DNA of 64,000 nt from Fidelibacterota bacterium (GCA_018657495.1 JABHXA010000004.1:83086-147085); one strand, 5' to 3'; counted from the stretch's first letter, positions 8,887 to 26,421 are shown. Numbers and translations are program-made. Notes: generated by a model not told the origin, from the sequence alone.

Positions 8887-8917
8887 TATCTAAATATACT
8901 TACCGTAAAAAAATCTG

Positions 8918-8950
8918 GATGGCAGGATAATAATCCTGTCATCTTTTTTT
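8918..8950 (+). terminator. Rho-independent terminator
   Basis: An 11-bp stem, GATGGCAGGAT (8918-8928) / ATCCTGTCATC (8933-8943) with one G-U pair, is followed by T7 (8944-8950). Confidence 0.8.
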
Positions 8951-9061
8951 CATTTCGTTGCAACTTTTTACGTTGAACAGATGCCCATAAAGTGGTACTT
9001 TACAATTATCTATTTACGCCAAAATATATAAACAAAATTCCACTTCAAGGAGATTTAACAC

Positions 9062-9136
9062 ATGTCTGCTAAGAGATATTTTCTATTATTTGCTGTATGC
9101 GCTAGTTTATCCATATTTAACACCGCCTATTCTCAA
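9062..9136 (+). other. Signal peptide of the giant protein
   Basis: MSAKRYFLLFAVCASLSIFNTAYSQ has a basic n-region, a hydrophobic core and an AYS-Q cleavage-like site. Confidence 0.7.
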
Positions 9137-12100
9137 GATGATCCGCCTGCTGAATTTGAGTACAATCAGTCCTCCCAGCAGGCTTTTTATTTCCTACAAT
9201 CTGCCAATATTGAATCTGTTGAATTGGCAGCTGATGACTGGATAGCTGTATTTAAAAATGGCGTCTGCGTTGGTGCAGCAATCTGGGAAGGTCTTAATAC
9301 AACATTAACGGCGCAGGGAGACCAGGGTGAAGATTGGACAGTTGGTTACCTTGTTGACGGCGATATCCCTGATTTCGTTGTATATGATGCATCGGAAGGG
9401 ATATTTCTTGACCAAGTTATGGCCAGTGATGTCCATGATATTAATGATGTCCCTATTAGTCTTGAATGGCATAGTGGTGGTCCATTTATTTTCATTGGCT
9501 CATTAGATGCTTATATCCGACCACTTGAATTTATTTTTAATCAATCCTCCTTACAGGCAAATTATTTCATAATCTCAGCCGTGATCAATACCAGCGAAAT
9601 CAGTACGGATGACTGGATCGGTATTTTCAACGGTGATATATGCGTCGGTGCTGCTCAATGGGCCGGTGAATGGACCCTCGTTCCTGCCATGGGTGATAAT
9701 GGCTTAGACTGGACGGTAGGTTATATGGAAAGTGGGGGAATCCCATCATTCCAGATTTGGGATGCATCCATTGATTCAATTTTTACAACCACTGAAACCA
9801 CAGGTGTAGATCCAGGTCTCGAATGGGCCAATTTGGCTTTTATTAATATTGACCAATTAGCTGCTATAACTGTTGATTGTAATGGAGATGATGGCGGCAG
9901 CGCTATTCTTGATGAATGCGGTAACTGTGTTGAGGGTAGTACAGGTTTACTTTTTAATTATGCCATGGATTGTCTTGGTGTCTGTGAAGGAACAGCAGTT
10001 GAAGATTGTGCTGGCGTGTGTGATGGTTCGTCATTAGAAGATGATTTTGATGGTTGTTGTGAAGAGTTTACCACTTTTTATGCGGATACTGACATTGACA
10101 CCTTTGGTGATCTTGAAAATAGCATTCAGGCTTGTGACCTTCAAGATGGTTATGTTGCCAACTCCAATGACTGTGATGATACAAATGTAAATATAAATCC
10201 GGATGCTACTGATGCAAATTGCGATGGTGTTGATGATAATTGTAATGATGTCTCAGATGATCAATATGGTGCAACTGCTACTGTTTGTGGTGTCGGTGTT
10301 TGTGAGTCAAATGGTGTTTTAGATTGTATAGATGGTTTTGAAATCGATTCCTGCGTTGAAGGTGACCCTACCGGTGACGATACAGATTGCAATGGTTTTG
10401 ATGAAGATTGCAGTGGCACAGCCGATGATAATTATGTAGCGCCTGACACCGAATGTGGTGAAGGTGTATGTTTCTCAACTGGTATATTGGAATGTATTGA
10501 TGGTAGCCCATTTGATACTTGCGAAGAAGGATTACCCGCCGGTGATGATACCGATTGTAACGGTATTGACGAAGATTGCAGTGGCGGTGCAGATGATAAT
10601 TATGTAACGACTGACACTGAATGTGGTGAAGGTGTATGTTTCTCAACTGGTATATTGGAATGTATTGATGGTGGGGAAGTTGACTCTTGTGTTGAAGGAG
10701 ACCCTACCGGTTTAGATGATGATTGTAATGGTATCGACGAAGATTGTAGTGGCACAGCAGATGATAATTATTTGGCAACCGACACCGAATGTGGTGAAGG
10801 CGTATGTTTCTCTACTGGTACACTAGAATGTATAGATGGTGGGGAAGTTGACTCCTGTGTTGTAGGTGATATTACAGGACTAGATGATGATTGTAATGGT
10901 TTTGACGAAGATTGCAGTGGCACAGCTGATGACAATTATGTATCAACAAGCACAGAATGTGGTGAAGGAGTGTGTTTCTCTACTGGTTCTTTGGAATGTA
11001 TTGATGGTAGTCCATTTGATACTTGCGAGGAAGGATTACCTACTGGTGATGATACTGATTGTAATGGTGTTGATGAAGATTGTGCAGGTGGCGCAGATGA
11101 TAATTATCTTGCTGCCGAAACTGAATGTGGTGTTGGTGTTTGTATTGCAACAGGATTTTTAGAATGTGTAGATGGTGGGGAAGTTGATTCCTGTGTTGAA
11201 GGTGATCCCGCCGGTGATGATACCGATTGTGATGGGTTGGATGACGATTGCAGTGGGGCAGCGGATGATAATTATGTCGCCACTGCCACTGTTTGCGGAG
11301 TTGGAGTATGCGAATCGATTGGTGTATTAGATTGTATTGATGGCAATGAAGAAAATTCTTGTGTGGAAGGTGAAATAACAGGTGATGACACGGATTGTAA
11401 TGGGTTGGATGACGACTGTAGCGGTTTTGCCGATGATAATTATATCATTGATGATTCATGTTTTGTAGCTGGTGATTGTGTCATTGGCAATGTAGAATCA
11501 AGCTGTATAGATGGTACTCCAACTGAGTGCCTCGCAGGCGAAGATTTTATAGATGAATGCTCAGGTGAATGTTGTGATGGTGATACTGGTATTGAATGTT
11601 CATATTTTAATGCACAGGATGACTTCAGTGGATACTATGATTGTGCCGGTGTTTGTGATGGTTTTAGTTATGAAGATCCATGCGGTACCTGTGATGACGA
11701 TCCTTTAAATGATTGCACATATAGTTATTTTGAGGCAGTTTATGATACAATTCCCGATAATGGGACTTCTCAGTTGATTATTTTTGATGCTGGCATTACT
11801 TCATTATCAATTGGTGATGAAATTGCCATATTTGACGCCGCAGGACTAGATATTACCAATATTGAAAATTGTAATGGCAATATTGGTGAAGTAATGGTTG
11901 CGTCGGGGACATACTGGGGTGGTGTGCAAACTGAGATGGTTGCTACCGGATCTATTGATAATTGCGCCTTTGGCGGTTCAATGATGCCAGGTTGGATATC
12001 CGGCAATTCAATTGTTATCAGAGTATATAAACACGATGAAGAGATTGAATATGAAACTGTAGCCACATACAATGTGGGAAATGGTGTATTCGGTGATATT

Positions 12101-15100
12101 TTTACCAGCGTCGGCGAACTTACCTTAGTCGAAGATCAAAATATTGTTATAAACGAATTTTTCTTTAGAAACAGCAATTCTGATGTACCTGATTATATAG
12201 AATTATATAATACAGAGGATGTAGCTGTTGATTTGGCTGGATGGACAATTAATGGTGAAACAATAGTTTCAGGAATTATAGATTCTGCTGGATATTTCCT
12301 TTTAGCTACTGAAGATCCTTTCTATGATGCCAATGGCACTGAATATTTTGCCGGTGAAAATCTTCCAAACTCTGCCATGGTCGATATTAGCTTAGGTACC
12401 AGTTCCGATGGTTTAATCCTTGTCTCTGCTGTCGGCGCAGTCGTTGATGAAGTATCATATAATATTGACGAATGGCCAACCGGTTCTATTAATAGTGGGT
12501 ATGCTGTTGAATTAAAAAATGAGGATTTTGATAATTCACTGGCTGGAAACTGGGGTCAGGTTGAAGAAACACCAATTGGAACCTATATGTATCTTGATAG
12601 CGGTGACGACTGGGATTTTGGTTCTCCGCTGGCAATAAATACTGTATGGGAAGGACCTATAGAGGGGTGTATGGATTCTCAGGCATGTACTTATGATCCC
12701 TTGGCAAATATAAATGTACCCGAAGATTGCTTATATGATGCCATTTATTATGCCGATGTGGATGGTGATGGTTTTGGCGCTGGAGTTGGTGAGATTTTCT
12801 GTCCTGGTGATGAAACACCAGGTTGGGTCAGTAATACAGATGACCCCGAACCAGATTGCCCAAATATCACACCAGATATTTTACAGGTTGATGATTGTGG
12901 TGTATGTATTTGTTATGATGAAGATAATGAATTCTGTGAACCTACAGAATGGAATGAAGATATGGATTGTGCCGGAGAATGTTTTGGACCTGCTGTTTTA
13001 GACGATTGTTTGCATTGTTCCGGTGGCAACTCTGGACATATAGCCAATTCTGAAATCGATGAATGTAATGTTTGTCCGGAAGGATATTTAGCAATTGACG
13101 GAACTCCTCTTCCTCCTGATCCGGAATATATATATCTAGATGGTCCAGATTGCTTAGAAGTTTGTTTTGGTGATGCCGAGTTTGATGCCTGTGATATTTG
13201 TGAAGGTGGAAATGAAGAAATTCTCCCGGATTTCTGTGTTGGTCCCGACTGTGATTGTGAGGGTGTCTGTTTTGGTGATGCCGAGTTGGCAACATTCTGT
13301 TTAGACACCGATGGTGATGGTCTTGGAAACCCCGGGACAGAATATGAATATTGCGAGGGGCTTCCGGATGGCGGATATGTCCCAAATTGTGACGATGAAC
13401 ACCCTGATTGCTTCGAAAACTTCTTTGATTGTCTTGGTGAATGCGGTGGACCAGCTATAGAAGATTGTGCCGACGAATGTAATGGTAATGCACAAATAGA
13501 AGTTTTCTGTATCGATGAAGATCAGGATGGATATGGTGCATTTGGCTCAGAAACTGAATATTGTGATACCCAACTACCAGATCCAGATTTATGGATAACA
13601 GATTGTACTGACCAATGTGATGATATTTTTGGTATTGTATGTACCAATGTAATGGTAGTGGAAATTGATCCAACAGGTATATCTCAACTTATTATTTTTG
13701 AAAATACCATCACGGGTTTAATACCTGGAGATGAAGTTGGTATATTCGATCTAAATGGTTTGGATGCCACCAATGAAGGCAATTGTGAAGGAAATACTGG
13801 TGAAGTAATGGTTGGTGCCGGTTTATGGGAAGGTGACCAACTCAATATTGCTGCTATAGGTTCCGTTGACAATTGTGCCTTTGGTGCTACGATGCTGCCA
13901 GGTTATGTTAATGGAAATTCAATTGTTGTAAGGGTATACAGACCATCTGATGATATAATTTATGATACCAATCTCACCTTCAGTATAGGTAACGGTGTCT
14001 ATGGAGATATATTCTCTAACATTTCAGAAATTACATTTGCCCAATCTTATGATGTAGTTATCAATGAGTTCTTCTTTAGAAATCAAAATTCAGATGCTCC
14101 TGATTATGTGGAGCTTTATAACAATGAAACTGAAAATGTTGATCTGGCAGGCTGGACATTTAATGGTGAAGTAATTTCCTCTGGTACAATAAGTGCTGGC
14201 GGTTACTTCCTTATATCTATTGATGATCCTTTCTACGATGTCAGCGGTGAAGACTATTTTGCTGGTGTGGATTTTCCAAATAGTGCCTTTGCTGATATCA
14301 GCCTTGGTACCTCTTCTGATGAATTGGTTCTTGTTGCTAACGATGGCACCCCCATTGATGAAGTAAATTATAGTGCCGATGCCGGTTGGCCAACAGGATT
14401 GCCAAATCGCGGTTATGCCGTTGAATTGATTAGTCCAACACTTGATAACAGCCTGTTAATCAACTGGGCCCGTGCCCTTGAAGACCCTGTAGGCAGTTAT
14501 ATGTATAATCCCACTGGTGACGGCTGGGACTTTGGCTCTCCCCTTGAAGTAAATACTGTATTTGAAGAAGACGTCACAGAAGTACTAGGCTGTCCAGATG
14601 TTGATGCATGTAACTTTAATCCTGAAGCCAATATCGATGACGGCTCCTGTGAATACGATGCTACTTATTATGCCGATGTAGATGGTGATGGATTTGGTTT
14701 TGGTGATGGTGTGGTTTTCTGTGGCAATCCTGGCGAAGGTTGGGTAAGTAATAATCTCGATCAAGAAGAAAACTGCTGGAATCCAACACCTGAAACATTA
14801 CTTGTGGATGATTGCGGTGTCTGTAACGGAGAAAATGCCAGTATGGATTGTGCCGGTGTTTGTGATGGTACAGCACTAATCGATAACTGCGATGAATGTG
14901 TCCTCCCAGGAAATGAATGCGTACAAGACTGTAACGATGTTTGGGGTGGAAGTGGTCAACCAGATGCTTGTGGCGTTTGTGATGGTGACAACTACGAATT
15001 AGTCCCCGATTTCTTTGTTGGTCCTGATGCTGATTGCGCCGGTGTTTGTGATGGTGCCAGTTATGAAGATGAATGTGGTGTGTGTGATGATGACCCATCA

Positions 15101-18100
15101 AACGACTCATTCTATAACAGTTCTGAAGACTTTGGCGGAATATATGATTGTGCTGGTGTTTGTGATGGAGACAGCTACTTTGACGAATGCGGAGTTTGTG
15201 ATGATTTAGTCGAAAACGATAATGCTGATATGGATTGTCTTGGTGTCTGTTATGGTCCAAATCTGGAAGATGAATGTGGAACATGTGATGACGACACTCT
15301 CAATGATTGTATCCAGGATTGTGCTGGCGTCTGGGGTGGAGAATCATACCCGGATGAATGCGGTGTCTGTGATGATGACCCTGCAAACGATTCCTATTGG
15401 AATAGTTCAGCAGATTTTGGTGGAGTTTACGATTGTGCAGGAGATTGTTTTGGAGCCCTTATAGTTGACGATTGTGGTATTTGCGATGGTGACGGCAGCA
15501 GCTGCGATACGCCAATTGTCCTTGATCAGAGTTTATTTACTGACGAAAATACTGCACTTGATTTTGCCCTGACAGCACTCGATGTTGATCCATTAGAATT
15601 TCTACTTGTTGTTGATCCTCTCAGCGGTTCATTAGAATGCACTGATGGTACCGATATAAATTGTACCTATACACCAAATACAGGGTTTAGTGGAATTGAT
15701 CAATTCCAATACCAGGTGTTTGATGGTACATGGTTATCAAATCTTGGTACAGTGACAATCACTGTAAATAGCATTTCATCTCCACCAGTAGCTGAATCTT
15801 TTGGTCTGGAACTTGATGAAGATCAGGATCTTCTCTTGTATCTCATTGGCTCCAGTGGTGATGTTGATGATGATATGCTTGAATTCCAGATTACGTCATT
15901 TCCATCAAATGGTGACTTGAGCGCTGATCGTGCTCTTGAATCATATACCTATTCTCCATTTGACAATTACAATGGATCAGATAGTTTCACCTATACCGTA
16001 TTTGACGGTAACCTCACATCAGAAGAAGCGACTGTAGATCTAAATATCCTGCCTATGAACGATGCCCCGATTATAGAATCTGTTGATCCAGTTGGCGATA
16101 GCTTTGAAATTTTTGAGAATACATTTATCGATATAACCGTTAATGTTAACGAAGTGGATGGCGATGACTTTACTCTTGAATTCCCAGGTATGCCAGTCAA
16201 TGGTGAGCTGACTTATTTTGCAGGTCAGGATAACTTTATTTATACACCAACTCCTGGCTTTTCCGGTGGTGAGGTGATTACTGTACAAGCGGTAGAAACT
16301 GCAACTGGGGATTTACTTGCCTCCGCTCCAGCTGTAATTGAAATTACAATTCTACCTATCGAGCATACTCCAATTGCCTATGATGTCATTGAAGATTTAT
16401 TTGAAGATAGTGAAAATTTCCATATTTCTCTGATTGCCATTGATCCAGATGGGGATGCAATTGAATTCTTTATTGATCAGTCTCCAGATCATGGTTTACT
16501 GAATCTACATGGGGATTATGTGGAATATTCACCAGATGAAAATTATAATGGTACAGATGAATTCACATATTATGCCAGTGATGGTTCAAGTGATAGCGAT
16601 CCTGCAACTGTACATATTAATGTCATTCCTGTGAACGATCCACCAGATATTGCCGATGAGAATTTTACCGATGTCTCAGATGGATTTACATTTAACCTTC
16701 CCACAACTGACATTGATGGCGATGATCTTTCCGTAACATTTATTCCAGAAGTTGACGGTATTGGTCTCGCTTATCTTGGTGGTACGGTTACTCCACTTGG
16801 TAATGGTGAATATATGTACAATGTGGCAAATAATATGACAGACTGGGATATGATATTTATGAATGTTACTGATGGTGAAATAACCGTCAACGCCAGTATA
16901 CAGTTCAACATCACAGGTGGATTACAGCTTATGTCACGTGATGCGCCAAATGCCCTGGATCAATCAGTAGATGTGACAGAAGATGTTGTATCGGTTATCA
17001 CCCTCATTGGTGTTGACATTGGTTTTATCATGGATAATACTGCCACAGTTCAAATTACTCAGGACCCAATTAACGGATCAATTTCCGTACCGGTTCTGCA
17101 GAATGTTTTTGTCGAAAATGTCGCCAACTGGAATCTGAATTATACACCAAATGGAGATTTCTTTGGTTCGGATAGTATCAAATATCAGGTTACAAATCCA
17201 AATAATACCGATGGCAATACATCTGGTGAAGGAACCGTTTTGATAACTGTGCATCCAGTAAATGATATTCCATCTTTAACCGTTATTTCAAATACGGCAA
17301 TTGATGAAGATACTCAGACGACTTTAACGATGAATGGCACAGATCCCGATAATACATTAGTAATGACAGCCCTTTCAACGGATCCATCCAATCTGACCCT
17401 AGAGATTTCCGGTCTGGATTTGACTTTAGTACCGGCGGCAAATTATAATGGCGCTGTTGTGGTAACTGCAACCGTTACGGAAGCTGATGGCGATGATAAT
17501 TATACGGCTGTTCAGTCATTTACCTTGACGATAGATCCAATAAATGATACACCGGTAATGACACCGGTCACAGATATTTCAATGGCTGAAGAAGGTGTTT
17601 ATAATCTATCTATGAGTGCCTCAGATATTGATGGTGATAATTCCTTCACCTATAATGCTAGCTCAGATAACAATAGTTTAATTAGTCTGGCAATCGATGG
17701 CAATCAATTAACAATTACAGGTGAGCTAGATATGTCTGGTACAGCCACGGTTACTGCAAATGTAGATGACGGTGGCAATGTAAACTCTCAATCTGAGAGT
17801 ATTACTTTTGATGTAACTGTAAATAATACCAATGACGCACCGCTTGTAAATGTCAGCACGCCGGGAGCTGTGAATGAAGATGGCGCTAATGTTGTGCTCA
17901 ACTTTACACCAAGCGATGCGGATGATGATCAGGTAACTATAACATACAGTTATAATAATGATCAATTATTCCCAGAAGGATCGGTAGACTTAAATCTGTC
18001 TGTTGGAGATAGTGGTACTGCAAGAACGATTACAATGAATCCTGCTGAAAATGCCAGTGGAACGGCCATTTTAATTATTACTGCAGATGATGGTTCAGTT

Positions 18101-21100
18101 ACCTCATCTGAACAGGTAACTATTACTGTGAATGCAACAAACGATGCACCTGAAATGGTTGCCATTGGCAATCAAAATGTCAATGAAGACCAGGTGAAAA
18201 CAGTGGCTCTCGCCGCCAGTGATGCCGATAATCTTGCCAATGAACTGACATTCTCTGTTACCGCTGGAACAAATATAACCGCCTCTGTAAGCGGTAATGA
18301 ACTTACCTTGACCCCGGATGCAAATTATAACGGTTCCGAATCATTCACTGTAACCGTGACAGATGGTACCAATGAAGATTCTTCTACCTTCCTGTTGACA
18401 GTAGATCCAGTACCGGATTCACCAGTGATAACTTCAACTGCCGGTATAGAAGCTGTAGAAGGTATCGAATATACCTACCAGGTTGTTGCTACCGATGTCG
18501 ATGAAGAATCTCTAGAATATAGTTTATCCTCTGAACCTGCTGGTATGGCTGTTGACGGTCTCGGGTTAATCACCTGGACACCTGCAGACGGAATTTCAAC
18601 ATCCGGCACAGTGACACTCACAGTTGCCGATCCTGGTGGATTGGTGGCAATAGAGAATTTCACAATAAGTGTCAGTGATGTGGATTGTAATGGTCTTCAA
18701 GGTGGAACTGCGTTAGAAGATGATTGTGGTGATTGTGTGGACCCAGCAAACTTTAATGATGCCATGGATTGTAATGGTGTCTGCGATGGCACTGCTGTAA
18801 CAGATAATTGTGGTGACTGTGTCGAAGGTGATACAGGTTTAACATTTGATGGTGCCATGGATTGTAATGGCGTTTGTGATGGTACTGCTGTCACAGATGA
18901 ATGTAGTAATTGTGTTGATCCTTCCGACTTTAACGAAGCCATGGATTGTAATGGCGACTGTGATGGAACTGCCTTAACCGATGATTGTGGTGACTGTGTG
19001 GAAGGTAATACTGGCATCACATACAACGAAGCTATGGATTGTGCCGGTGTCTGCGATGGTGTCTCTTATGAAGATGATTGCGGCATCTGTGATAACAATG
19101 TTGACAACGATAATATTGATATGGATTGTGACGGTGTCTGTTTTGGTCCCAATCTGGAAGATGAATGTCTTACCTGCGATGACGATCCATTAAATGACTG
19201 TGTACAGGATTGTGCCGGTATTTGGGGTGGTACTGCATACGAAGATGAATGTGATGTCTGTGATGATGACCCACTAAATGACTGTGTACAGGATTGTGCC
19301 GGTGACTGGGGTGGTGATGCCTATGCAGATTTATGCGGTATATGTGATGATGATCCATTAAATGATTCGTTTTATATTGACCAAACAAATTTTGGTGGTG
19401 CCTATGACTGTAATGAAGTCTGCGAAGGAGATTGGGTCACTGATGACTGTGATGACTGTGTAGATCCTGAAAACTTTGATGAAGCCGATCTTGGTTGTGG
19501 CTGTGATGAACCAGCAGCAATTGAATACTGTCATGATACCGATAGTGATGGCAATGGTAATCCAGGCACTCAGACAGAATATTGTGCTGACGAATTACCA
19601 TTTGGCTGGGTAGTCAGTGATTCATGTGATGATCCCGATCCTGATTGTGCCACGGATGACACCGATGATTGTGGCGTTTGTGCAGGTAACAATGCCGATA
19701 TGGATTGCGATGGAGTTTGTTTTGGTAATTCATTGGAAGATATGTGTAACACTTGTGATAACAATCCTGATAACGACTGTGAACAGGATTGTGCTGGTGT
19801 TTGGGGTGGTGACTCTCTGACAGATGATTGCGGTATTTGTGATAATGATCCACTAAATGATAATGCTGACATGGATTGTGCTGGCGTTTGTTTTGGTGAT
19901 TCATTAGAAGATAATTGCGGAGTTTGTGATAATGATCCACTAAATGATGATGCCGACATGGATTGTGCTGGTGTTTGTTTTGGATCTTCACTTGAAGATA
20001 TGTGTGGAGTTTGTGATAATAATCCTGATAATGATTGTGAACAAGACTGTGCTGATGTCTGGGGTGGTGACTCACTGACAGATAATTGTGGTGTTTGTGA
20101 TAATGATCCACTAAATGATGATGCTGACATGGATTGTGCTGGCGTTTGTTTTGGTTCAAACCTGGTAGACGAATGCGGTGTTTGTGATGATGATGACACG
20201 AATGATTGTATCCAGGATTGTAACGATGTTTGGGGTGGTGATTCGTTAGAAGATGCCTGCGGTGTCTGTGATAATAATCCTGACAATGATAATTTAGATG
20301 ATGGTTCTGGCTTTATTACTGGACCTGATGCCGATTGCGCTGGTGTCTGTGATGGACTAAGTCTTGAAGATGAATGCGGAGATTGTGACGATGATGATAC
20401 TAATAATTGTGTACAGGATTGTAATGGCACATGGGGTGGATCATTTGTAATGGATGACTGTAGTGATTGTGTAGATCCTGCCGATTTAAATGGAGCCATG
20501 GATTGTAATGGTGTCTGTGATGGATTAGCTGTTACTGATGATTGCGGTGATTGTGTTGAAGGTGATACAGGTGCTGATTTCAATGATGCAATGGATTGTG
20601 CTGGAGTCTGTGATGGATTAAGCCTAGTAGATGAATGTGGCGTTTGTGATGATGATGACACAAATAATTGTACTCAGGATTGTGCCGATGTTTGGGGCGG
20701 TGATTCATTAGAAGATGCCTGTGGTGTCTGTGATAATAATCCTGACAACGATAATCTTGATGATGGTTTTGGTTTTATTACCGGACCTGATGCCGATTGT
20801 GCTGGTATATGTTTTGGAACTTCTGAAGTAGATGAATGCGGAGTCTGTGACGATGATGATACCAATGATTGTGAACAAGATTGTAATGGAACCTGGGGCG
20901 GATCATTTGTGATGGATGACTGCGCTGATTGTGTCGATCCGGCAAACTTTAATGACGCCATGGATTGTACTGGTCTTTGCGATGGTACTTCAATAGAGGA
21001 CGATTGTGGCGATTGTGTCGATCCTGCAGATTTTAATGCTGCCATGGATTGTAATGATGTCTGTAACGGTCTCAGTCTTGAAGATGATTGCGGTGTTTGC

Positions 21101-22183
21101 GATGAAGATCCATCAAATGATAATGATGATATGGATTGTGCCGGTGTTTGTTTTGGAACTGCTGCTGAAGACGATTGCGGATTCTGTGATGATGATAGCA
21201 GCAATGACTGTGCACTTGGTTGTATTGATCCATTAGCTGATAATTATGATCCTGATGCTGACACTGATGATGGATCATGTACATTTACCGATCTCATACC
21301 GCCAAATCAGTTTAATGATGTGACCTATTCGAGTCCAACTGGGGATATAACACTGTTCGTCCCCGGTAATAACCTGATGTTTGATGGAACAGCTCTTGTT
21401 GATTCAGTATTTTTCACTATCGGTTCATATATACCAGGTGGAATTGACCCGGATAAGGAAACATTAAAATCGTTTATTTCATCTGATTTCAGTGCTTTGC
21501 AGAATGTACTGATGTTCTGGCCTTATAGTATATATTTTGCCAATCCAGTTGAAATTACCATACCTTATGATATTTCATTGTCAAGAGGGGGGCAGGCCGT
21601 AACAAATGTTATACTTGGTCTTGATTCACCTTCAGATAATACATGGACAGTTGTTAATGGCAGTAATTGTGCTGCCGGCTCATGTAGCGGTAGTGTGAAT
21701 TCATTTGGAATTTATACCGTTGCTACCATGTTAGTGGATTGTAATGGTACACCTGGTGGTGAAGCATACGTTGATAACTGTGGTATTTGTAATGATGATC
21801 CAGATGATGATTGTATTCAGGATTGTGACGGCGACTGGGGCGGTACAGATGAAATTGATGATTGTGGTGTATGCGGTGGTGATAATTCATGCGCATTTGG
21901 AATCACAAACTTCCATGTTTATCCGAACCCAATAGATGCATCAGCTGATAGCTATTTCTATTTTGAAACAACAAAGGCCTTTGTCTTTGGCAGCATCAAA
22001 ATTTTTGATTTTGCTGGTAATGAAGTGGCTAAAATCTCTCTTGTCGGCGATGTTCTTGGTGAACAGAATATCCAATGGACAGATATGCAGGGGGTCGGCC
22101 GTGGAGGATATGTGGCTGTCCTTGTCTTGCGGGATGCTGATGGTACCAGGTTGAAGGCATATTCAAAAATTGCTGTCAAATAA
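9062..22183 (+). CDS. Giant (4,373 aa) secreted mosaic surface protein, putative T9SS cargo/adhesin
   Basis: A single uninterrupted 13,122-nt ORF with an AAGGAG SD, a signal peptide and a C-terminal YPNP-type tail. Internal modules are listed as separate features below. Confidence 0.9.
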   Translation: MSAKRYFLLFAVCASLSIFNTAYSQDDPPAEFEYNQSSQQAFYFLQSANIESVELAADDWIAVFKNGVCVGAAIWEGLNTTLTAQGDQGEDWTVGYLVDGDIPDFVVYDASEGIFLDQVMASDVHDINDVPISLEWHSGGPFIFIGSLDAYIRPLEFIFNQSSLQANYFIISAVINTSEISTDDWIGIFNGDICVGAAQWAGEWTLVPAMGDNGLDWTVGYMESGGIPSFQIWDASIDSIFTTTETTGVDPGLEWANLAFINIDQLAAITVDCNGDDGGSAILDECGNCVEGSTGLLFNYAMDCLGVCEGTAVEDCAGVCDGSSLEDDFDGCCEEFTTFYADTDIDTFGDLENSIQACDLQDGYVANSNDCDDTNVNINPDATDANCDGVDDNCNDVSDDQYGATATVCGVGVCESNGVLDCIDGFEIDSCVEGDPTGDDTDCNGFDEDCSGTADDNYVAPDTECGEGVCFSTGILECIDGSPFDTCEEGLPAGDDTDCNGIDEDCSGGADDNYVTTDTECGEGVCFSTGILECIDGGEVDSCVEGDPTGLDDDCNGIDEDCSGTADDNYLATDTECGEGVCFSTGTLECIDGGEVDSCVVGDITGLDDDCNGFDEDCSGTADDNYVSTSTECGEGVCFSTGSLECIDGSPFDTCEEGLPTGDDTDCNGVDEDCAGGADDNYLAAETECGVGVCIATGFLECVDGGEVDSCVEGDPAGDDTDCDGLDDDCSGAADDNYVATATVCGVGVCESIGVLDCIDGNEENSCVEGEITGDDTDCNGLDDDCSGFADDNYIIDDSCFVAGDCVIGNVESSCIDGTPTECLAGEDFIDECSGECCDGDTGIECSYFNAQDDFSGYYDCAGVCDGFSYEDPCGTCDDDPLNDCTYSYFEAVYDTIPDNGTSQLIIFDAGITSLSIGDEIAIFDAAGLDITNIENCNGNIGEVMVASGTYWGGVQTEMVATGSIDNCAFGGSMMPGWISGNSIVIRVYKHDEEIEYETVATYNVGNGVFGDIFTSVGELTLVEDQNIVINEFFFRNSNSDVPDYIELYNTEDVAVDLAGWTINGETIVSGIIDSAGYFLLATEDPFYDANGTEYFAGENLPNSAMVDISLGTSSDGLILVSAVGAVVDEVSYNIDEWPTGSINSGYAVELKNEDFDNSLAGNWGQVEETPIGTYMYLDSGDDWDFGSPLAINTVWEGPIEGCMDSQACTYDPLANINVPEDCLYDAIYYADVDGDGFGAGVGEIFCPGDETPGWVSNTDDPEPDCPNITPDILQVDDCGVCICYDEDNEFCEPTEWNEDMDCAGECFGPAVLDDCLHCSGGNSGHIANSEIDECNVCPEGYLAIDGTPLPPDPEYIYLDGPDCLEVCFGDAEFDACDICEGGNEEILPDFCVGPDCDCEGVCFGDAELATFCLDTDGDGLGNPGTEYEYCEGLPDGGYVPNCDDEHPDCFENFFDCLGECGGPAIEDCADECNGNAQIEVFCIDEDQDGYGAFGSETEYCDTQLPDPDLWITDCTDQCDDIFGIVCTNVMVVEIDPTGISQLIIFENTITGLIPGDEVGIFDLNGLDATNEGNCEGNTGEVMVGAGLWEGDQLNIAAIGSVDNCAFGATMLPGYVNGNSIVVRVYRPSDDIIYDTNLTFSIGNGVYGDIFSNISEITFAQSYDVVINEFFFRNQNSDAPDYVELYNNETENVDLAGWTFNGEVISSGTISAGGYFLISIDDPFYDVSGEDYFAGVDFPNSAFADISLGTSSDELVLVANDGTPIDEVNYSADAGWPTGLPNRGYAVELISPTLDNSLLINWARALEDPVGSYMYNPTGDGWDFGSPLEVNTVFEEDVTEVLGCPDVDACNFNPEANIDDGSCEYDATYYADVDGDGFGFGDGVVFCGNPGEGWVSNNLDQEENCWNPTPETLLVDDCGVCNGENASMDCAGVCDGTALIDNCDECVLPGNECVQDCNDVWGGSGQPDACGVCDGDNYELVPDFFVGPDADCAGVCDGASYEDECGVCDDDPSNDSFYNSSEDFGGIYDCAGVCDGDSYFDECGVCDDLVENDNADMDCLGVCYGPNLEDECGTCDDDTLNDCIQDCAGVWGGESYPDECGVCDDDPANDSYWNSSADFGGVYDCAGDCFGALIVDDCGICDGDGSSCDTPIVLDQSLFTDENTALDFALTALDVDPLEFLLVVDPLSGSLECTDGTDINCTYTPNTGFSGIDQFQYQVFDGTWLSNLGTVTITVNSISSPPVAESFGLELDEDQDLLLYLIGSSGDVDDDMLEFQITSFPSNGDLSADRALESYTYSPFDNYNGSDSFTYTVFDGNLTSEEATVDLNILPMNDAPIIESVDPVGDSFEIFENTFIDITVNVNEVDGDDFTLEFPGMPVNGELTYFAGQDNFIYTPTPGFSGGEVITVQAVETATGDLLASAPAVIEITILPIEHTPIAYDVIEDLFEDSENFHISLIAIDPDGDAIEFFIDQSPDHGLLNLHGDYVEYSPDENYNGTDEFTYYASDGSSDSDPATVHINVIPVNDPPDIADENFTDVSDGFTFNLPTTDIDGDDLSVTFIPEVDGIGLAYLGGTVTPLGNGEYMYNVANNMTDWDMIFMNVTDGEITVNASIQFNITGGLQLMSRDAPNALDQSVDVTEDVVSVITLIGVDIGFIMDNTATVQITQDPINGSISVPVLQNVFVENVANWNLNYTPNGDFFGSDSIKYQVTNPNNTDGNTSGEGTVLITVHPVNDIPSLTVISNTAIDEDTQTTLTMNGTDPDNTLVMTALSTDPSNLTLEISGLDLTLVPAANYNGAVVVTATVTEADGDDNYTAVQSFTLTIDPINDTPVMTPVTDISMAEEGVYNLSMSASDIDGDNSFTYNASSDNNSLISLAIDGNQLTITGELDMSGTATVTANVDDGGNVNSQSESITFDVTVNNTNDAPLVNVSTPGAVNEDGANVVLNFTPSDADDDQVTITYSYNNDQLFPEGSVDLNLSVGDSGTARTITMNPAENASGTAILIITADDGSVTSSEQVTITVNATNDAPEMVAIGNQNVNEDQVKTVALAASDADNLANELTFSVTAGTNITASVSGNELTLTPDANYNGSESFTVTVTDGTNEDSSTFLLTVDPVPDSPVITSTAGIEAVEGIEYTYQVVATDVDEESLEYSLSSEPAGMAVDGLGLITWTPADGISTSGTVTLTVADPGGLVAIENFTISVSDVDCNGLQGGTALEDDCGDCVDPANFNDAMDCNGVCDGTAVTDNCGDCVEGDTGLTFDGAMDCNGVCDGTAVTDECSNCVDPSDFNEAMDCNGDCDGTALTDDCGDCVEGNTGITYNEAMDCAGVCDGVSYEDDCGICDNNVDNDNIDMDCDGVCFGPNLEDECLTCDDDPLNDCVQDCAGIWGGTAYEDECDVCDDDPLNDCVQDCAGDWGGDAYADLCGICDDDPLNDSFYIDQTNFGGAYDCNEVCEGDWVTDDCDDCVDPENFDEADLGCGCDEPAAIEYCHDTDSDGNGNPGTQTEYCADELPFGWVVSDSCDDPDPDCATDDTDDCGVCAGNNADMDCDGVCFGNSLEDMCNTCDNNPDNDCEQDCAGVWGGDSLTDDCGICDNDPLNDNADMDCAGVCFGDSLEDNCGVCDNDPLNDDADMDCAGVCFGSSLEDMCGVCDNNPDNDCEQDCADVWGGDSLTDNCGVCDNDPLNDDADMDCAGVCFGSNLVDECGVCDDDDTNDCIQDCNDVWGGDSLEDACGVCDNNPDNDNLDDGSGFITGPDADCAGVCDGLSLEDECGDCDDDDTNNCVQDCNGTWGGSFVMDDCSDCVDPADLNGAMDCNGVCDGLAVTDDCGDCVEGDTGADFNDAMDCAGVCDGLSLVDECGVCDDDDTNNCTQDCADVWGGDSLEDACGVCDNNPDNDNLDDGFGFITGPDADCAGICFGTSEVDECGVCDDDDTNDCEQDCNGTWGGSFVMDDCADCVDPANFNDAMDCTGLCDGTSIEDDCGDCVDPADFNAAMDCNDVCNGLSLEDDCGVCDEDPSNDNDDMDCAGVCFGTAAEDDCGFCDDDSSNDCALGCIDPLADNYDPDADTDDGSCTFTDLIPPNQFNDVTYSSPTGDITLFVPGNNLMFDGTALVDSVFFTIGSYIPGGIDPDKETLKSFISSDFSALQNVLMFWPYSIYFANPVEITIPYDISLSRGGQAVTNVILGLDSPSDNTWTVVNGSNCAAGSCSGSVNSFGIYTVATMLVDCNGTPGGEAYVDNCGICNDDPDDDCIQDCDGDWGGTDEIDDCGVCGGDNSCAFGITNFHVYPNPIDASADSYFYFETTKAFVFGSIKIFDFAGNEVAKISLVGDVLGEQNIQWTDMQGVGRGGYVAVLVLRDADGTRLKAYSKIAVK
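9140..9870 (+). repeat. Two tandem A-type copies of an unnamed ~120-aa module
   Basis: FEYNQSSQQAFYF...DDWIAVFKNGVCVGAAIWEG...GYLVDGDIPDFVVYD aligns with FIFNQSSLQANYF...DDWIGIFNGDICVGAAQWAG...GYMESGGIPSFQIWD. Confidence 0.6.
10169..11551 (+). repeat. Eight tandem MopE-like putative metal-binding cysteine-rich units (~168 nt each)
   Basis: The first unit reads DCDDTNVNINPDATDANCDGVDDNC. Seven units of DDTDCNG[FIVL]D[ED]DCSG.ADDNY...ECGEGVCFSTG.LECIDG follow. The period of 168 nt was checked between 10376 and 10544. Stretches of more than 55 nt are nearly identical between units. Confidence 0.7.
11735..12660 (+). other. Module 1: B-type unnamed domain followed by a lamin-tail domain (LTD)
   Basis: The B-type part reads SQLIIFDAGITSLSIGDEIAIFD...NCNGNIGEVMV...DNCAFGG. 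The LTD signature is VINEFFFRNSNSDVPDYIELYNTEDVAVDLAGWTING. Confidence 0.7.
13655..14580 (+). other. Module 2: a second B-type domain + LTD pair
   Basis: SQLIIFENTITGLIPGDEVGIFD...NCEGNTGEVMV...DNCAFGA is followed by VINEFFFRNQNSDAPDYVELYNNETENVDLAGWTFNG. Confidence 0.7.
15500..18420 (+). repeat. Array of about ten cadherin-like / Ig-like ~95-105-aa domains
   Basis: Successive modules end in MNDAP, IEHTP, VNDPP, VNDIP, INDTP, TNDAP, TNDAP and VPDSP. Each contains a Y.P..(N/D)(Y/F).G.D.F.Y...DG pattern. Confidence 0.65.
18420..18680 (+). other. He_PIG / dystroglycan-type Ig-like domain
   Basis: PVITSTAGIEAVEGIEYTYQVVATDVDEESLEYSLSSEPAGMAVDGLGLITWTPA. Confidence 0.55.
18680..21230 (+). repeat. 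Long array of ~22-27-aa Cys4/Asp-rich units
   Basis: The recurrent pattern is DC[AN]G[VI]C[DF]G.[SA]..D[DE]CG[VDI]CD[DN][DN]P.ND. Shorter arrays occur at about 9870-10060, 11545-11730, 12860-13650, 14800-15500 and 21735-21895. Confidence 0.7.
21911..22180 (+). other. C-terminal Por-secretion-type (T9SS CTD-like) domain
   Basis: FHVYPNPIDASADSYFYFETT...IKIFDFAGNEVAKI...YVAVLVLRDADGTRLKAYSKIAVK* forms a ~90-aa beta-sandwich-like tail with the YPNP start. Confidence 0.6.
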
Positions 22184-22224
22184 GAATTAATTTTTATTCA
22201 TAATAATTTATAAATGGAAAGACT

Positions 22225-23178
22225 ATGAGAATATTCAAAAAGATCCAAATGAGCAGAAAGTTAATCATTATCGTTAGCCTTATGATGACGGGACTTATGG
22301 CAGAAGCAGATACCAATCCAGTTGCGCATACAGGCATGTTTGTAGATGCCCGGGCAGCCAGTATGGGTGGGGCTTATACTGCCGCCGCTTTTGGTGTTGA
22401 AGCTGCCTATTATAATCCAGCCGGACTCACAATGTTCGAAGGCAGGGAGTTTAGCTCTATGCTTTCAACAGGATTGGCATTCGACCGTAATTTTAGTTTT
22501 ATTGGTGTTGCCGCCAATCCTGGTTTCAAGAATAGAATGTCTGCCGCTGTCGCCTGGTCAAATGCCGGATGGGGAAATATGGATGGATATGATTCAAACA
22601 ATATGCCTGATGGTGATTTCGAAGTAAAGGAAAGCAGCTTGATGTTGAGTTTTGCTGAATATGTTGATTATCTGCGTCTTAGCTGGGGAACCACCATCAA
22701 AATGTTAAATTCTGACGTCGATGGTTCAAAAGCAGGTTTTGGATTGGATATTGGGCTTTTACATGAATTGGGTAATTTCCACATGTTCGAAGAGGTCATT
22801 GTTGGGGCTGTCGTCAAAGATTTCTATTCAAAAATTGATGATGAAAAATTGGATGCTGTCTATAAAATTGGTGTTTCTGGGTATTATTCACCGGAATTAT
22901 TCACCGTTTTTGATCTTGGTTTTGGCACTGGAGATAATAGTGAAACAACTTATGCACTTGGTGTGGAGTATCGCTATAATATCAGTGATTTGGGACCGGT
23001 ACAGAATATGTCGATTGAATCAGCAGATTTTCTGCCTCGATTCGGTATTAATACAGGTGATCTCTATTTTGGTTTTGGTCTCAACCTACCAAAGTTTTCA
23101 CTGGATTATGCCTTTATACCGGCACCAAATAGTGAATTCGATACATCTCACAGATTTTCACTAAATATTCCATTTTAA
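22225..23178 (+). CDS. PorQ/PorV-family-like outer-membrane beta-barrel
   Basis: It has a signal peptide, the motif FVDARAASMGGAYTAAAFGVEAAYYNPAGLTMF, alternating-hydrophobicity strands and a C-terminal ...FSLNIPF*. It is separated by 41-nt spacers from both flanking cargo genes. Confidence 0.6.
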   Translation: MRIFKKIQMSRKLIIIVSLMMTGLMAEADTNPVAHTGMFVDARAASMGGAYTAAAFGVEAAYYNPAGLTMFEGREFSSMLSTGLAFDRNFSFIGVAANPGFKNRMSAAVAWSNAGWGNMDGYDSNNMPDGDFEVKESSLMLSFAEYVDYLRLSWGTTIKMLNSDVDGSKAGFGLDIGLLHELGNFHMFEEVIVGAVVKDFYSKIDDEKLDAVYKIGVSGYYSPELFTVFDLGFGTGDNSETTYALGVEYRYNISDLGPVQNMSIESADFLPRFGINTGDLYFGFGLNLPKFSLDYAFIPAPNSEFDTSHRFSLNIPF

Positions 23179-23219
23179 TAAAGAAAAGAATTACAACTAA
23201 TAAACAAGGAGTTAAATAA

Positions 23220-26200
23220 ATGAGATCTATTTTTAGAATGTTTTCATTCGTCGTTTTGTTTGCAGCAGTGTCTGCACAATACTATAATGTTGAGATTGAA
23301 CAAACTGGAGAATATCAGTTAATATCATTTCAATCATCTATTACCGGACTACAGGTTGGTGATGAAATCGGTGTATTTGATACAAATGCTATCATGAATT
23401 CAGGAAATTGTGATAATGAAATTGGTGAATTACTCGTTGGTGCTGGTGTTTGGGATGGCAGCCAAATAAATATTTCAGCCATTGGCTCCCTTGATTATTG
23501 TGCCTTTGGCGGTGATCAATTTGCCGGTTGGGTTGATGGTAATCCAGTAGTCGTGAAAATCTATCGTCAATCAACGGGCATGGAATATGCTGCTACCGTA
23601 ACTTATTCTATTGGTACCGGGAGCTTTGGTGATTTACTACTTATTGTCTCTGAAATTACAATTGACGATACTCCTGTTGAAGATTATTATAACGTAGACA
23701 TTGATGAGACTGGTGAGTGGCAGTTGATTTCTCTCCAGACATCAATTACATTCCTGGAGCCTGGTGATGAAATTGGTATCTTTGATGCCAACGCCATTTT
23801 GAATTCAGGGAATTGCGATAACGATATTGGTGAATTACTGGTTGGTGCCGGTGTTTGGGATGGCAGTCAATTGGATATTTCTGCTATTGGATCTCTTGAC
23901 TACTGTGCTTTCGGCGGTGACCAGTTTGCTGGTTGGGTTGATGGCAATGAAGTAATTGTCAGAGTTTATGAGCCCGATACAGAAACAGAAACTGAAGTAG
24001 CAGCTACCTACCTTATTGGTACAGGGCACTTTGGTGATTTATTACTCATTATTTCTGAATTAACAGGTGATACATTTTGTGATGACATTGACGCATGTAA
24101 CTACGGCGCTGAAGAATCATGTTGGTATCCAGAAGATGAAGGCTGGTGCGATTGTGAAGAAAATGTCGAAGATTGTTTTGGCGAATGTGGCGGTACGGCA
24201 GAACTAGATGATTGTGGTGTTTGTGACGGATTGAATGCTGATATGGATTGTTCAGGTGAATGTTTTGGTGATGCATACGTAGATGATTGTGGTGTGTGTG
24301 ATGGAATGAATGCTGACATGGATTGTTCAGGTGAATGTTTTGGTGATGCCTATGTAGATGATTGTGGTATTTGTGATGGAATGAATGCTGATATGGATTG
24401 TTTAGGTGAATGTTTTGGTGATGCCTATGTAGATGATTGTGGTGTTTGTGATGGAATGAATGCTGACATGGATTGTTCAGGTGAATGTTTTGGTGATGCT
24501 GAGCTAGATGATTGTGGAGTCTGTGAAGGAATGAATGCCGACATGGATTGTTCAGGTGAATGTTTCGGCGATGCTTATGAAGATGATTGTGATGTTTGTG
24601 ATGATAATCCTGATAATGACAACGAAGATATGGATTGTGCTGGGGTATGTTTTGGTAATAGTTATGAGGATTTCTGTGGAGTCTGTGATGATGATCCTGA
24701 AAATGATTGTCCAGAATTAGTATATTTTACTGACTTGCCACCAGAAACTGGTGTCAGTTCATTAATCCTTGTAAATGTAACTGGCGGATTAAATGAGTAT
24801 GATGAAGTGGGTTTATTTGATGCTGCTGGTTTAATCAACTATAATGATTGTTCTGACCAATATGGTGAAATATTGGTGGGTGCATCTGCTTATCTAGGTG
24901 AGCAAATGGAAATTGTCGCTACCGGTTCAGTTGATAATTGCGCTTTTGGTGGTGTTCAGCTTTCAGGTTATGTCGCTGGTAATCCTGTTGATTATAAAAT
25001 TTGGAACAGTCAGGATGAAGCATGTGGAGAATATGCCATACCTGCTGATCAGGTCTCTTATGCGGTTGGTAATGGTGTATTTGGTGATATCATTACGGTA
25101 GCAAATCTTGACGCAAACCGTTATGGCTGTATGGATCCTGAATCTTTGAATTATGATCCATGCGCAACTGCTGAAATGGATGGTGATTGTCAATACTTCA
25201 CAATTCAAACTTTAGAATTGCTTGGACTAAGATGGAATAATATTTCATTTAATGTTGAACCTCTTGATCCTGCTGTAGAAAATTTATTCCCTGCTGATGA
25301 TGTATTGATTGTTACAAATGATCAATCTCAATTCTATCTTCCTGGATTTGGTGTCAACATGATTAATGACGTCCAATGCAGCGAAGGTTACTCAGTATAT
25401 CTAACTGGTGTAGATCCACTCATTATCGAGGTTGAAGGGGCAATGATTGTAGATTGTCCAATTGATTTATTTCCATTATTCTGGAATAATATCGCTTATC
25501 ATTGCACTGAAGCTATGGATGCTGCCGATGCCTTTAATGGCATTCCAGTTCTTCTTGTAACAGATGATAGTGGAAATTATTACTTACCTGGATTTGGTGT
25601 TAATACAATTGATTCCAATGGTGGAATGCAACCTGGTAAAGGTTATAGAGTTTATCTTGAGGGTTCAGACCCTGCAACTCTTGAATATGATTGTGGTGCA
25701 TCAATGGCGCGCGGTAATGACTACTTGCAATCACAGTTTGCTGCCACTCAATCTGACCAGTATCAGATAACAGAAACAGGTATGTCCCATCCTATTTTGA
25801 TAGAATCAATTGAAGGGAATGTGTCGGTTGGTGATGAAATTGTTGCTTATGCCAATGGTGATGTAGTTGGTGCAATAAAAATTACCGATCTTAATTCATC
25901 ATCTCTACTGGTTGCCTGGGAAGGTTACGAAAATTACAATATCTCATTGGATGGTTATACTGAAGGTGACAATATTGAATTAAGACTTTGGAGTTATGCG
26001 GAGAATACTGAGAAACATGTAGAAATGGATCTGAATAATTATCATTATGGTAGTACACCGCTCACAACGGGTAATATCATTGTAACTGATGAGTTGGCAG
26101 TACCTGAAAACTTTGCACTGTCTGCTGCATATCCAAATCCATTCAATCCAACTACCACAGTAAACTATAGAATCCCACAGGATTCCAATGTAAAAGTGGA

Positions 26201-26369
26201 AGTTTATGCTATGACTGGTCAGCTGGTTACCGAATTGGTTAATCAGAATCAGACAGCTGGTTATTACCAAATAACCTGGAATGCAGGGACTCAGCCAAGC
26301 GGTATTTACTTTGTAAAATTAACTGCTGGTAACTTCTCTCAAATTCAGAAAGTGATGCTGGTTAAATAA
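23220..26369 (+). CDS. Secreted 1,049-aa T9SS cargo, paralogous in modules to the giant protein
   Basis: The signal peptide is MRSIFRMFSFVVLFAAVSAQ. Three B-type modules lie at 23280-23670, 23685-24070 and 24711-25115. There are Cys4/Asp repeats, two ~80-aa modules (25200-25690), one A-like module (25760-26090) and a canonical CTD. Confidence 0.9.
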   Translation: MRSIFRMFSFVVLFAAVSAQYYNVEIEQTGEYQLISFQSSITGLQVGDEIGVFDTNAIMNSGNCDNEIGELLVGAGVWDGSQINISAIGSLDYCAFGGDQFAGWVDGNPVVVKIYRQSTGMEYAATVTYSIGTGSFGDLLLIVSEITIDDTPVEDYYNVDIDETGEWQLISLQTSITFLEPGDEIGIFDANAILNSGNCDNDIGELLVGAGVWDGSQLDISAIGSLDYCAFGGDQFAGWVDGNEVIVRVYEPDTETETEVAATYLIGTGHFGDLLLIISELTGDTFCDDIDACNYGAEESCWYPEDEGWCDCEENVEDCFGECGGTAELDDCGVCDGLNADMDCSGECFGDAYVDDCGVCDGMNADMDCSGECFGDAYVDDCGICDGMNADMDCLGECFGDAYVDDCGVCDGMNADMDCSGECFGDAELDDCGVCEGMNADMDCSGECFGDAYEDDCDVCDDNPDNDNEDMDCAGVCFGNSYEDFCGVCDDDPENDCPELVYFTDLPPETGVSSLILVNVTGGLNEYDEVGLFDAAGLINYNDCSDQYGEILVGASAYLGEQMEIVATGSVDNCAFGGVQLSGYVAGNPVDYKIWNSQDEACGEYAIPADQVSYAVGNGVFGDIITVANLDANRYGCMDPESLNYDPCATAEMDGDCQYFTIQTLELLGLRWNNISFNVEPLDPAVENLFPADDVLIVTNDQSQFYLPGFGVNMINDVQCSEGYSVYLTGVDPLIIEVEGAMIVDCPIDLFPLFWNNIAYHCTEAMDAADAFNGIPVLLVTDDSGNYYLPGFGVNTIDSNGGMQPGKGYRVYLEGSDPATLEYDCGASMARGNDYLQSQFAATQSDQYQITETGMSHPILIESIEGNVSVGDEIVAYANGDVVGAIKITDLNSSSLLVAWEGYENYNISLDGYTEGDNIELRLWSYAENTEKHVEMDLNNYHYGSTPLTTGNIIVTDELAVPENFALSAAYPNPFNPTTTVNYRIPQDSNVKVEVYAMTGQLVTELVNQNQTAGYYQITWNAGTQPSGIYFVKLTAGNFSQIQKVMLVK
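24207..24581 (+). repeat. Five near-identical in-frame 75-bp tandem repeats
   Basis: The unit GATGATTGTGGTGTTTGTGATGGAATGAATGCTGACATGGATTGTTCAGGTGAATGTTTTGGTGATGCCTATGTA encodes DDCGVCDGMNADMDCSGECFGDAYV. Copies differ at only a few positions. Degenerate copies continue to about 24715. Confidence 0.9.
26118..26366 (+). other. Canonical T9SS C-terminal sorting domain
   Basis: LSAAYPNPFNPTTTVNYRIPQDSNVKVEVYAMTGQLVTELVNQNQTAGYYQITWNAGTQPSGIYFVKLTAGNFSQIQKVMLVK*. Confidence 0.85.
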
Positions 26370-26390
26370 CAGCCATTATATAAAAACTTT

Positions 26391-26421
26391 AAACAGGGGC
26401 GGAACATTTTCGCCCCTGTTT
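26391..26421 (+). terminator. Hairpin terminator after the cargo cassette
   Basis: An 11-bp perfect stem, AAACAGGGGCG (26391-26401) / CGCCCCTGTTT (26411-26421), has a 9-nt loop. The T-tract is partly inside the stem and the A-tract on the other side suggests bidirectional function. Confidence 0.65.

Follow-up and report, generated by a model that had tools for sequence, protein, structure and literature searches.

We analysed a 64,000-nt stretch of DNA from a Fidelibacterota bacterium (GCA_018657495.1, JABHXA010000004.1:83086-147085), referred to below as the window, and focused on a cassette of three genes lying between two hairpins. The first gene encodes a giant adhesin-like protein, the second a small outer-membrane beta-barrel of the PorV/PorQ type, and the third a shorter secreted protein, and the products of genes 1 and 3 both end in a C-terminal domain (CTD) of the secretion system of type IX (T9SS). 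The three genes probably constitute a surface-display operon of a marine Marinimicrobia bacterium, and we lean towards the view that the gene 2 barrel acts in it as the private carrier and anchor of the giant adhesin encoded upstream. The host is an abundant marine SAR406 population of ~38% G+C. The exact gene 2 protein is indexed in ~275 blocks of public assemblies, including the metagenome-assembled genomes GCA_018674335.1 and GCA_018661275.1. The proteins in its 90% cluster are deposited as 'hypothetical protein [Candidatus Marinimicrobia bacterium]', and these names bear out the preliminary description of the window, which had judged the genome not to be that of a classical member of the Bacteroidia.

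Layout and products of the cassette

Three open reading frames (ORFs) were found on the + strand at 9062-22183, 22225-23178 and 23220-26369, encoding 4373, 317 and 1049 aa respectively. Signal-peptide-like N-termini were seen in all three products, and an AAGGAG Shine-Dalgarno sequence stands ahead of genes 1 and 3. Each of the two spacers has 41 nt and folds no better than shuffled sequence. Their equal length is a coincidence, since orthologous cassettes have spacers of 26/60 and 45/72 nt. RNA folding and a terminator scan identified an intrinsic-terminator-like hairpin at 8917-8951 (+), with a 12-bp stem (8917-8944), a 4-nt loop and a run of seven T (-17.6 kcal/mol, z -5.8; none of 200 shuffles folded as well). 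It closes the preceding gene (8455-8886) and sets the 5' boundary of the cassette. The 3' boundary is a second hairpin at 26389-26423 (+; -24.2 kcal/mol, z -8.2), which lacks a clean T-run and was therefore left uncalled by the terminator scan. On folding, only these two flanking hairpins stood out; promoter and terminator consensus counts were not above shuffled expectation, and an Rfam search of the window gave no match. The preliminary description had reported a hairpin with T7 ahead of three same-strand genes, two hairpin-free 41-nt spacers, and AAGGAG sequences, signal peptides and YPNP-type tails for genes 1 and 3, all of which we saw again. Its 11-bp GC-rich hairpin at the 3' end was right as to the presence of a strong hairpin, but the stem measured 16 bp with an 8-bp G+C-rich core.

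Gene 1 (9062-22183, +), read from the ORF list, its translation and its AAGGAG sequence, encodes a 4373-aa secreted giant adhesin-like protein. The signal peptide is followed by Cys-rich repeats, by two copies of an unnamed module, each with a lamin-tail domain behind it, and by a Big_9/cadherin/tandem-95 region; further Cys-rich repeats and the CTD make up the C-terminal part. Pfam matches were obtained to Big_9 (3.5e-76), Cadherin_5, Cadherin_4 and LTD, and an NCBIfam match to the tandem-95 repeat. At the DNA level, tandem repeats with periods of 168 and 336 nt form the N-terminal Cys-rich array (10254-11403), and a second array in the C-terminal third (18681-21018; periods 84-462 nt) is related to the 25-aa repeat unit of gene 3. 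The CTD (21911-22180, +) appears to be a divergent, type-A-like T9SS domain (VYPNP...KIAVK), and it is the proposed ligand of the gene 2 barrel. It carries the YPNP and terminal K..K motifs and is 55-59% conserved among orthologues. Against TIGR04183 it scored 17.8 bits (E 0.0025; cutoff 23), and the best of its partial matches were with the PorU and M6i models, at their CTD ends. A local CTD profile, built iteratively from the 86 CTDs of the loci that we collected (see below), matched it with E 2.8e-15.

Gene 3 (23220-26369, +) encodes a 1049-aa secreted protein that translation and BLASTP showed to be partly paralogous to gene 1. It contains three full and one partial copies of the module as well as Cys-rich repeats of 25 aa, and it ends in a canonical type A CTD with a YPNP-type tail (26118-26366, +). 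This CTD scored above the cutoffs of both TIGR04183 (50.1 bits, cutoff 23) and Pfam Por_Secre_tail (PF18962; 42.7 bits, cutoff 27), and it resembles many unpaired cargo CTDs of other phyla at 1e-14 to 1e-25. The Cys-rich unit CGVCDGMNADMDCSGECFGDAYVDD is encoded by a 75-nt tandem repeat at 24205-24603 (+), with 5.3 copies and 90% matches in TRF. Across eight independent assemblies (loci L108-L116) the repeat had 3, 5, 6, 8, 9 or 10 units, giving products of 999 to 1174 aa; the 5154 nt next to it showed 0 mismatches among these assemblies, and the ends of gene 3 were identical. The differences in copy number may be real variation in the length of a surface stalk or an artefact of short-read assembly.

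The module common to genes 1 and 3, which the preliminary description had put at ~130 aa, is real and measured ~125 aa, with 49% identity over 138 aa in BLASTP. A local hidden Markov model located copy 1 of gene 1 at 11744-12127 (+; domain E 9e-58) and copy 2 at 13658-14038 (+; E 2e-60). Copy 2 (aa 1533-1659) is 49% identical to the first copy in gene 3 and runs directly into a lamin-tail domain (Pfam LTD, aa 1661-1771). In gene 3 the full copies lie at 23289-23663, 23694-24068 and 24735-25112 (+), and the partial fourth copy at 25761-26084 (+). No Pfam or NCBIfam model matched the module. Among 1.84 billion proteins it was present in 460 representatives (E <=0.001), of which many are very large, the longest having 4522 aa.

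Family and fold of the gene 2 barrel

Gene 2 (22225-23178, +) encodes a 317-aa protein that carries a signal peptide, the N-terminal NPA hatch motif DARAASMGGAYTAAAFGVEAAYYNPAGL, and an end in ...NIPF with a terminal Phe; the preliminary description had listed the signal peptide, the motif and the terminal Phe. It has no cysteine and no C-terminal tail beyond the terminal Phe of the barrel. The motif had been taken as a mark of PorV/PorQ barrels. This was mistaken, because the NPA hatch belongs to the whole FadL superfamily and YYNPAG alone is thus no PorV/PorQ marker; FadL N33A, P34A and delta-NPA entries were themselves in the Foldseek list of gene 2.

The assignment to the PorV/PorQ type, and not to PorP/SprF, was upheld by other evidence. 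Gene 2 matched NCBIfam PorV_fam (NF033709) with E 1.2e-21 and the PorQ equivalog (NF033711) with E 4e-14 (52.4 bits, under its cutoff of 220), and it scored 16 bits on the PorV equivalog (NF033710; cutoff 250). No PorP/SprF match was present among the NCBIfam or Pfam results at E up to 0.01. There was no Pfam match at all, PorV (PF19572) and Toluene_X (PF03349) included, and no NCBIfam match to BamG. Many homologues of gene 2 are named as PorV/PorQ family or bear Pfam PF19572. A profile of 113 homologues matched the solved PorV of Flavobacterium johnsoniae (6h3i_F) with E 8.3e-33 versus 1.8e-11 for TodX, and no TodX/FadL entry matched better than 1e-11. An AlphaFold2 model from the 113-sequence alignment was confident, with a predicted local distance difference test (pLDDT) score of 89.8, a predicted template modelling score of 0.85, 14 strands, and an N-terminal helical plug segment at pLDDT ~97; it supersedes a poor model made from 7 sequences (pLDDT 57). 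The top Foldseek matches of the model were PorV in the substrate-bound translocon (8gl6_F, template modelling (TM) score 0.70) and in the resting state (6h3i_F, TM 0.67), with FadL, TodX and BAM-associated barrels below them at TM 0.52-0.62. FadL-type proteins thus outscored PorV neither by sequence nor by structure. Judged from profiles and the predicted fold, gene 2 is most aptly seen as an outlying, divergent member of the PorV/PorQ family, an outer-membrane 14-strand barrel tied to FadL and TodX at the superfamily level only.

Pairing of barrels with upstream CTD proteins

To place gene 2 among related barrels we collected 80 loci, one genome per species, called their ORFs by a simple longest-ORF method, and built local barrel and CTD profiles. 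In these loci, which were chosen by similarity to gene 2 and so sample the families unevenly, 58 of 91 homologous barrels, drawn from many phyla, had a same-strand CTD gene as their direct upstream neighbour. A CTD gene directly downstream was found for 8 of 88, with a background of 4.7% for the other ORFs of the same loci. When the barrels were clustered at 40% identity, 20 of the 33 clusters had an upstream CTD partner, and 6 more were second barrels of tandems. The gap from CTD gene to barrel had a median of 13.5 nt, and the barrel clades tracked partner classes. Ig-repeat-rich CTD partners of 712 to 2532 aa were also present in other lineages (L011, L023, L031). The order of a CTD protein followed by a barrel is general, and the cassette of the window is one case of it.

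Two further arrangements were seen in the collected loci. One is a recurring set of three: a TonB-dependent receptor (~950 aa), a protein of ~1100-1250 aa in which nothing but a PorZ-like CTD is recognised, and a PorV/PorQ-family barrel of ~345 aa. It was found in Ignavibacteriota, Calditrichota, KSB1 and Kryptonia (L057, L066, L074, L076), is tandemly duplicated in L062 (3310-18526) and L075 (3493-18405), and recalls surface complexes of the SusC/SusD type. In Elusimicrobia (L036, L044, L046, L059, L077, L078, L085), kelch/GlxA-like proteins of ~1750-1960 aa with PorZ-like CTDs have a PorV/PorQ-family barrel of ~350 aa directly behind them. For the CTD proteins of ~1200 aa that precede clade B barrels, an identity as PorU was considered and rejected, as no PorU model matched them.

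A neighbour-joining tree of 88 barrels, a distance tree on very divergent sequences, agreed with hhalign in placing the gene 2 clade next to a PorQ-like clade of barrels that come first behind a CTD protein of ~500 aa. Between these two clades hhalign scored 221, compared with 146-175 for other clades and 93 for the PorV candidate elsewhere in the window. The PorQ-like clade occurs in Marinimicrobia, Calditrichota, Gemmatimonadota and Rhodothermia, and its partners of ~500 aa are beta-propeller proteins with tails matching the CTD ends of PorZ/PorU models. In Marinimicrobia, an SprA_N-domain protein is followed, a few genes further downstream, by a module of a PorZ-like protein and two barrels, and homologues of the C-terminus of that protein were found upstream in six of the collected loci. 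In the Marinimicrobia/Calditrichota locus (L099, 1-7843; also L017, L018, L019, L021, L041, L043), an SprA-like giant, an M28 peptidase, PrmA and a ~370-aa protein are followed by a ~520-aa CTD-bearing propeller protein (PorZ-like) and then by one or two PorV/PorQ-family barrels of ~300-320 aa. This locus looks like a T9SS attachment module outside Bacteroidota. Since the sister clade of gene 2 lies near sprA and has PorZ-like partners, it has the look of a housekeeping part, of the PorQ type, in a genuine T9SS locus. The clade of gene 2 itself is rare and sits on a long branch, with 5 clusters at >=54% identity among 5.8 billion proteins and nothing further above 36%. Gene 2 resembles a paralogue that diverged from the PorZ-paired PorQ-like barrels and came to lie beside an adhesin.

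The order of the cassette is kept in relatives (GCA_041294345.1, GCA_054014955.1 and others) whose barrels are 54-60% identical to gene 2, as the preliminary description had anticipated for the sequence cargo, barrel, cargo. The level of conservation of all three proteins, the barrel and both CTDs included, is close to that of the neighbouring housekeeping iPGM. We then considered which neighbour is the partner of the barrel. Among the 86 CTDs, that of gene 1 had 3 non-orthologous matches, and the other two CTDs of the window had 30 and 32. By these comparisons the CTD of gene 1 appears to be a divergent outlier and that of gene 3 a generic type A domain. Because the CTD of gene 1 is divergent and because CTD genes are enriched upstream of barrels only, the likely private partner of gene 2 is the upstream giant adhesin and not both neighbours. 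Given the low downstream count (8/88) and the generic CTD of gene 3, the preliminary suggestion that gene 2 is dedicated to both flanking cargos is not supported.

Proposed role, alternatives and known systems

In the current model of type IX secretion, a carrier barrel docks on SprA, binds the CTD of the cargo, and leaves with the cargo (PMC10994853). Each type B cargo is described as having a private carrier of the SprF family and staying bound to it, and type A cargo as using the general PorV (PMC12635249). PorV and PorQ keep PorU and PorZ attached to the surface (PMC12365241), and a review suggests that cognate PorV-like barrels shield such CTDs from cleavage (PMC10202324). Along these lines, the products of genes 1 and 3 would, after export by Sec, pass the outer membrane via the T9SS, directed by their CTDs. 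The gene 2 barrel would take the divergent CTD of gene 1 at the translocon and keep it bound and uncleaved, so that the 4373-aa protein would be tethered to the outer membrane, much as PorQ holds PorZ and PorV holds PorU. Gene 3 would probably follow the general PorV route, and its shared modules suggest joint work with gene 1 at the surface. SprF has a periplasmic C-terminal tail with Cys-X-Cys, whose disulfide link to GldK drives SprF along a track (PMC12635249). With neither a cysteine nor a C-terminal tail, gene 2 can form no such link to GldK or the track, and it is therefore expected to be a static anchor. Of the SprB/SprF-like logic built with another barrel family that the preliminary description proposed, the difference in family stands, and the SprF-style disulfide link to a track is absent. 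We give the private carrier and anchor role of gene 2, within a three-gene surface-display operon, somewhat better than an even chance.

The general route for gene 3 would run through a PorV candidate outside the cassette (56142-57518, +; 458 aa), which scored 228 bits on PorV_fam (cutoff 90), 165 bits on the PorV equivalog (cutoff 250) and 80.6 bits on Pfam PorV. Downstream of it, at 57531-60176 (+), lies an 881-aa 'T9SS-dependent M6-like inactivated metalloprotease' with a CTD (M6i 366 bits; CTD E 8e-17), so that here the CTD gene follows the barrel, the reverse of the usual order. The window thus holds one PorV candidate besides gene 2, and three CTD proteins. The pair at 56142-60176, together with the sprA carried by other Marinimicrobia, provides the T9SS context for the cassette. 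A 999-aa Peptidase_MA/PD40 protein comes next, and no PorU (C25 sortase) was seen in the region 56142-63205. Nearer the cassette, the ORF at 28124-29716 encodes a 530-aa secreted protein that lacks a CTD and weakly matches Reg_prop and the PorZ N-terminal beta-propeller (22 bits, cutoff 27). All relatives keep it at a distance of two genes downstream of the cassette, and a GWxTD-domain protein (29643-30899) comes after it. The ORF at 48826-50049 (407 aa) weakly matches the BamG family of Bacteroidota-type BAM complexes (73 bits, cutoff 250), and directly before it the ORF at 46013-48829 encodes an uncharacterised 938-aa protein without a family match.

Several observations weigh against a private carrier and anchor. 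The homology of gene 2 to PorV_fam is significant, but its 77.6 bits stay under the curated cutoff of 90 (orthologues reach 75-79 bits), as its scores do for PorQ and PorV, and the match is confined to the N-terminal half of the model (positions 11-185 of 326). Neither sprA nor porK/L/M/N, and no housekeeping PorZ-like/PorQ-like locus, was found within the 64 kb of the window or in its flanks (10 kb upstream, ~3.5 kb downstream). The relatives also share wider synteny with the window (iPGM, GWxTD and others), and their cassettes are for that reason not independent evidence of linkage. As a class, barrel-paired CTDs were not more divergent than unpaired ones (median 41.5 vs 48.5 matches), so that the argument from a specialised CTD rests on gene 1 alone. 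Gene 3 is likewise conserved beside the barrel, and may share it.

One alternative is that gene 2 is the general housekeeping PorQ of the T9SS attachment complex of this organism and is not dedicated to the flanking cargos. PorQ was its best-scoring named equivalog (52 bits), its nearest clade consists of PorQ-like barrels, no second PorQ-like gene was shown in the same genome within the window and those flanks, and none was found through neighbouring NCBI accession numbers. The score is nevertheless far below the PorQ cutoff of 220, and the PorQ-like barrels of other Marinimicrobia reside in the locus of sprA, PorZ-like protein, barrel and barrel, while gene 2 lies elsewhere. Its clade is a long, rare branch, and its upstream partner is an adhesin and not a propeller protein. 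We regard a housekeeping PorQ as unlikely.

It is similarly improbable that gene 2 is a transient PorV-like shuttle for both cargos, handing them on for CTD cleavage, release or lipid attachment. Such a role would fit the carrier model for type A cargo (PMC10994853), the substrate-bound translocon PorV as best structural match, and the fact that both flanking genes bear CTDs and are conserved with the barrel. But the window already has a much better PorV candidate (228 bits on PorV_fam, with a Pfam PorV match), gene 2 is PorQ-sized (317 vs 458 aa) and groups with PorQ-like barrels, and downstream CTD genes are not generally enriched. A FadL/TodX-type channel for the uptake of hydrophobic compounds, or a BamG-like assembly factor, unlinked to its neighbours, would share the NPA hatch and 14-strand fold, the FadL, TodX and BAM-associated Foldseek matches, and the weak precomputed Toluene_X match of some homologues, but we consider it very improbable, because PorV outranks FadL and TodX by profile and by structure, gene 2 itself matches neither Toluene_X nor BamG, a separate BamG-like gene is present at 48826-50049, and the strong rule of an upstream CTD gene is unexpected for uptake channels.

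The private carrier and anchor role thus remains the reading that we favour for gene 2. More tentatively, and with some doubt, we suggest that PorV/PorQ-type barrels generally have a one-to-one genetic link with a particular CTD protein, and that PorU-PorV and PorZ-PorQ are specialised cases of an old modular unit. This unit would have been reused for giant adhesins in SAR406, for TonB-receptor-linked proteins in Ignavibacteriota, Calditrichota and KSB1, and for kelch-like proteins of ~1800 aa in Elusimicrobia. If this is true, the view that type A cargo has one general carrier and only type B cargo private ones needs revising. The cassette and the wider order of CTD gene and barrel suggest that barrels of the PorQ/PorV type may also act as private carriers and anchors of particular type-A-like cargos in much of the FCB group and outside it. 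Until now only another barrel family (PorP/SprF) has been given that role, and the idea of a dedicated carrier would extend to type-A-like cargo and to PorQ/PorV-type barrels outside Bacteroidota. The current T9SS model rests on Bacteroidota, and some of the phyla concerned have no described T9SS: our literature searches returned no description of one in Marinimicrobia or Elusimicrobia, and the idea of dedicated PorQ/PorV-type carriers for adhesins turned up nowhere but in a review, as a remark. For gene 2 itself, the proposal offers a likely role for a protein publicly annotated as hypothetical, and a concrete hypothesis of how SAR406, an abundant uncultured ocean lineage, could mount a surface adhesin of 4373 residues.

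Among known barrels, the FadL/TodX channels have the 14-strand barrel and the N-terminal NPA hatch in common with gene 2, but they score lower than PorV and, unlike gene 2, are not genetically paired with CTD proteins. PorV of F. johnsoniae (6h3i / 8gl6), which binds CTDs by its extracellular loops, is the best solved match of gene 2 in both structure and sequence. It is, however, larger and serves many cargos, whereas gene 2 reaches only 16 bits on the PorV equivalog in a window that has a better PorV candidate.

The closest counterparts in the proposed function are PorQ-PorZ and PorV-PorU of the T9SS attachment complex of Porphyromonas gingivalis. Their barrels belong, like gene 2, to the FadL-like 14-strand family, and in both pairs a CTD protein is held on the surface by its barrel-bound CTD (PMC12365241, PMC10202324), as we propose for gene 2. 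These pairs are from Bacteroidota, and gene 2, which falls under the curated model cutoffs, is from Marinimicrobia. Moreover, their CTD partners are parts of the secretion machinery, whereas that of gene 2 would be a 4373-aa Ig/cadherin/Cys-rich adhesin without PorZ propellers. In gene order, the cassette resembles SprB-SprF of F. johnsoniae, in which a giant adhesin gene is likewise directly followed by the gene of a small barrel (PMC9143113, PMC12635249). SprF is PorP-like, handles cargo with a type B CTD, and has a CxC C-terminal tail; gene 2 has no PorP/SprF match, no cysteine and no periplasmic C-terminal tail, and the CTD of gene 1 is type-A-like. The SprF barrel is the dedicated exporter and anchor of its adhesin (PMC9143113, PMC12635249), and the gene 2 barrel may play the same part for the giant adhesin of the cassette.

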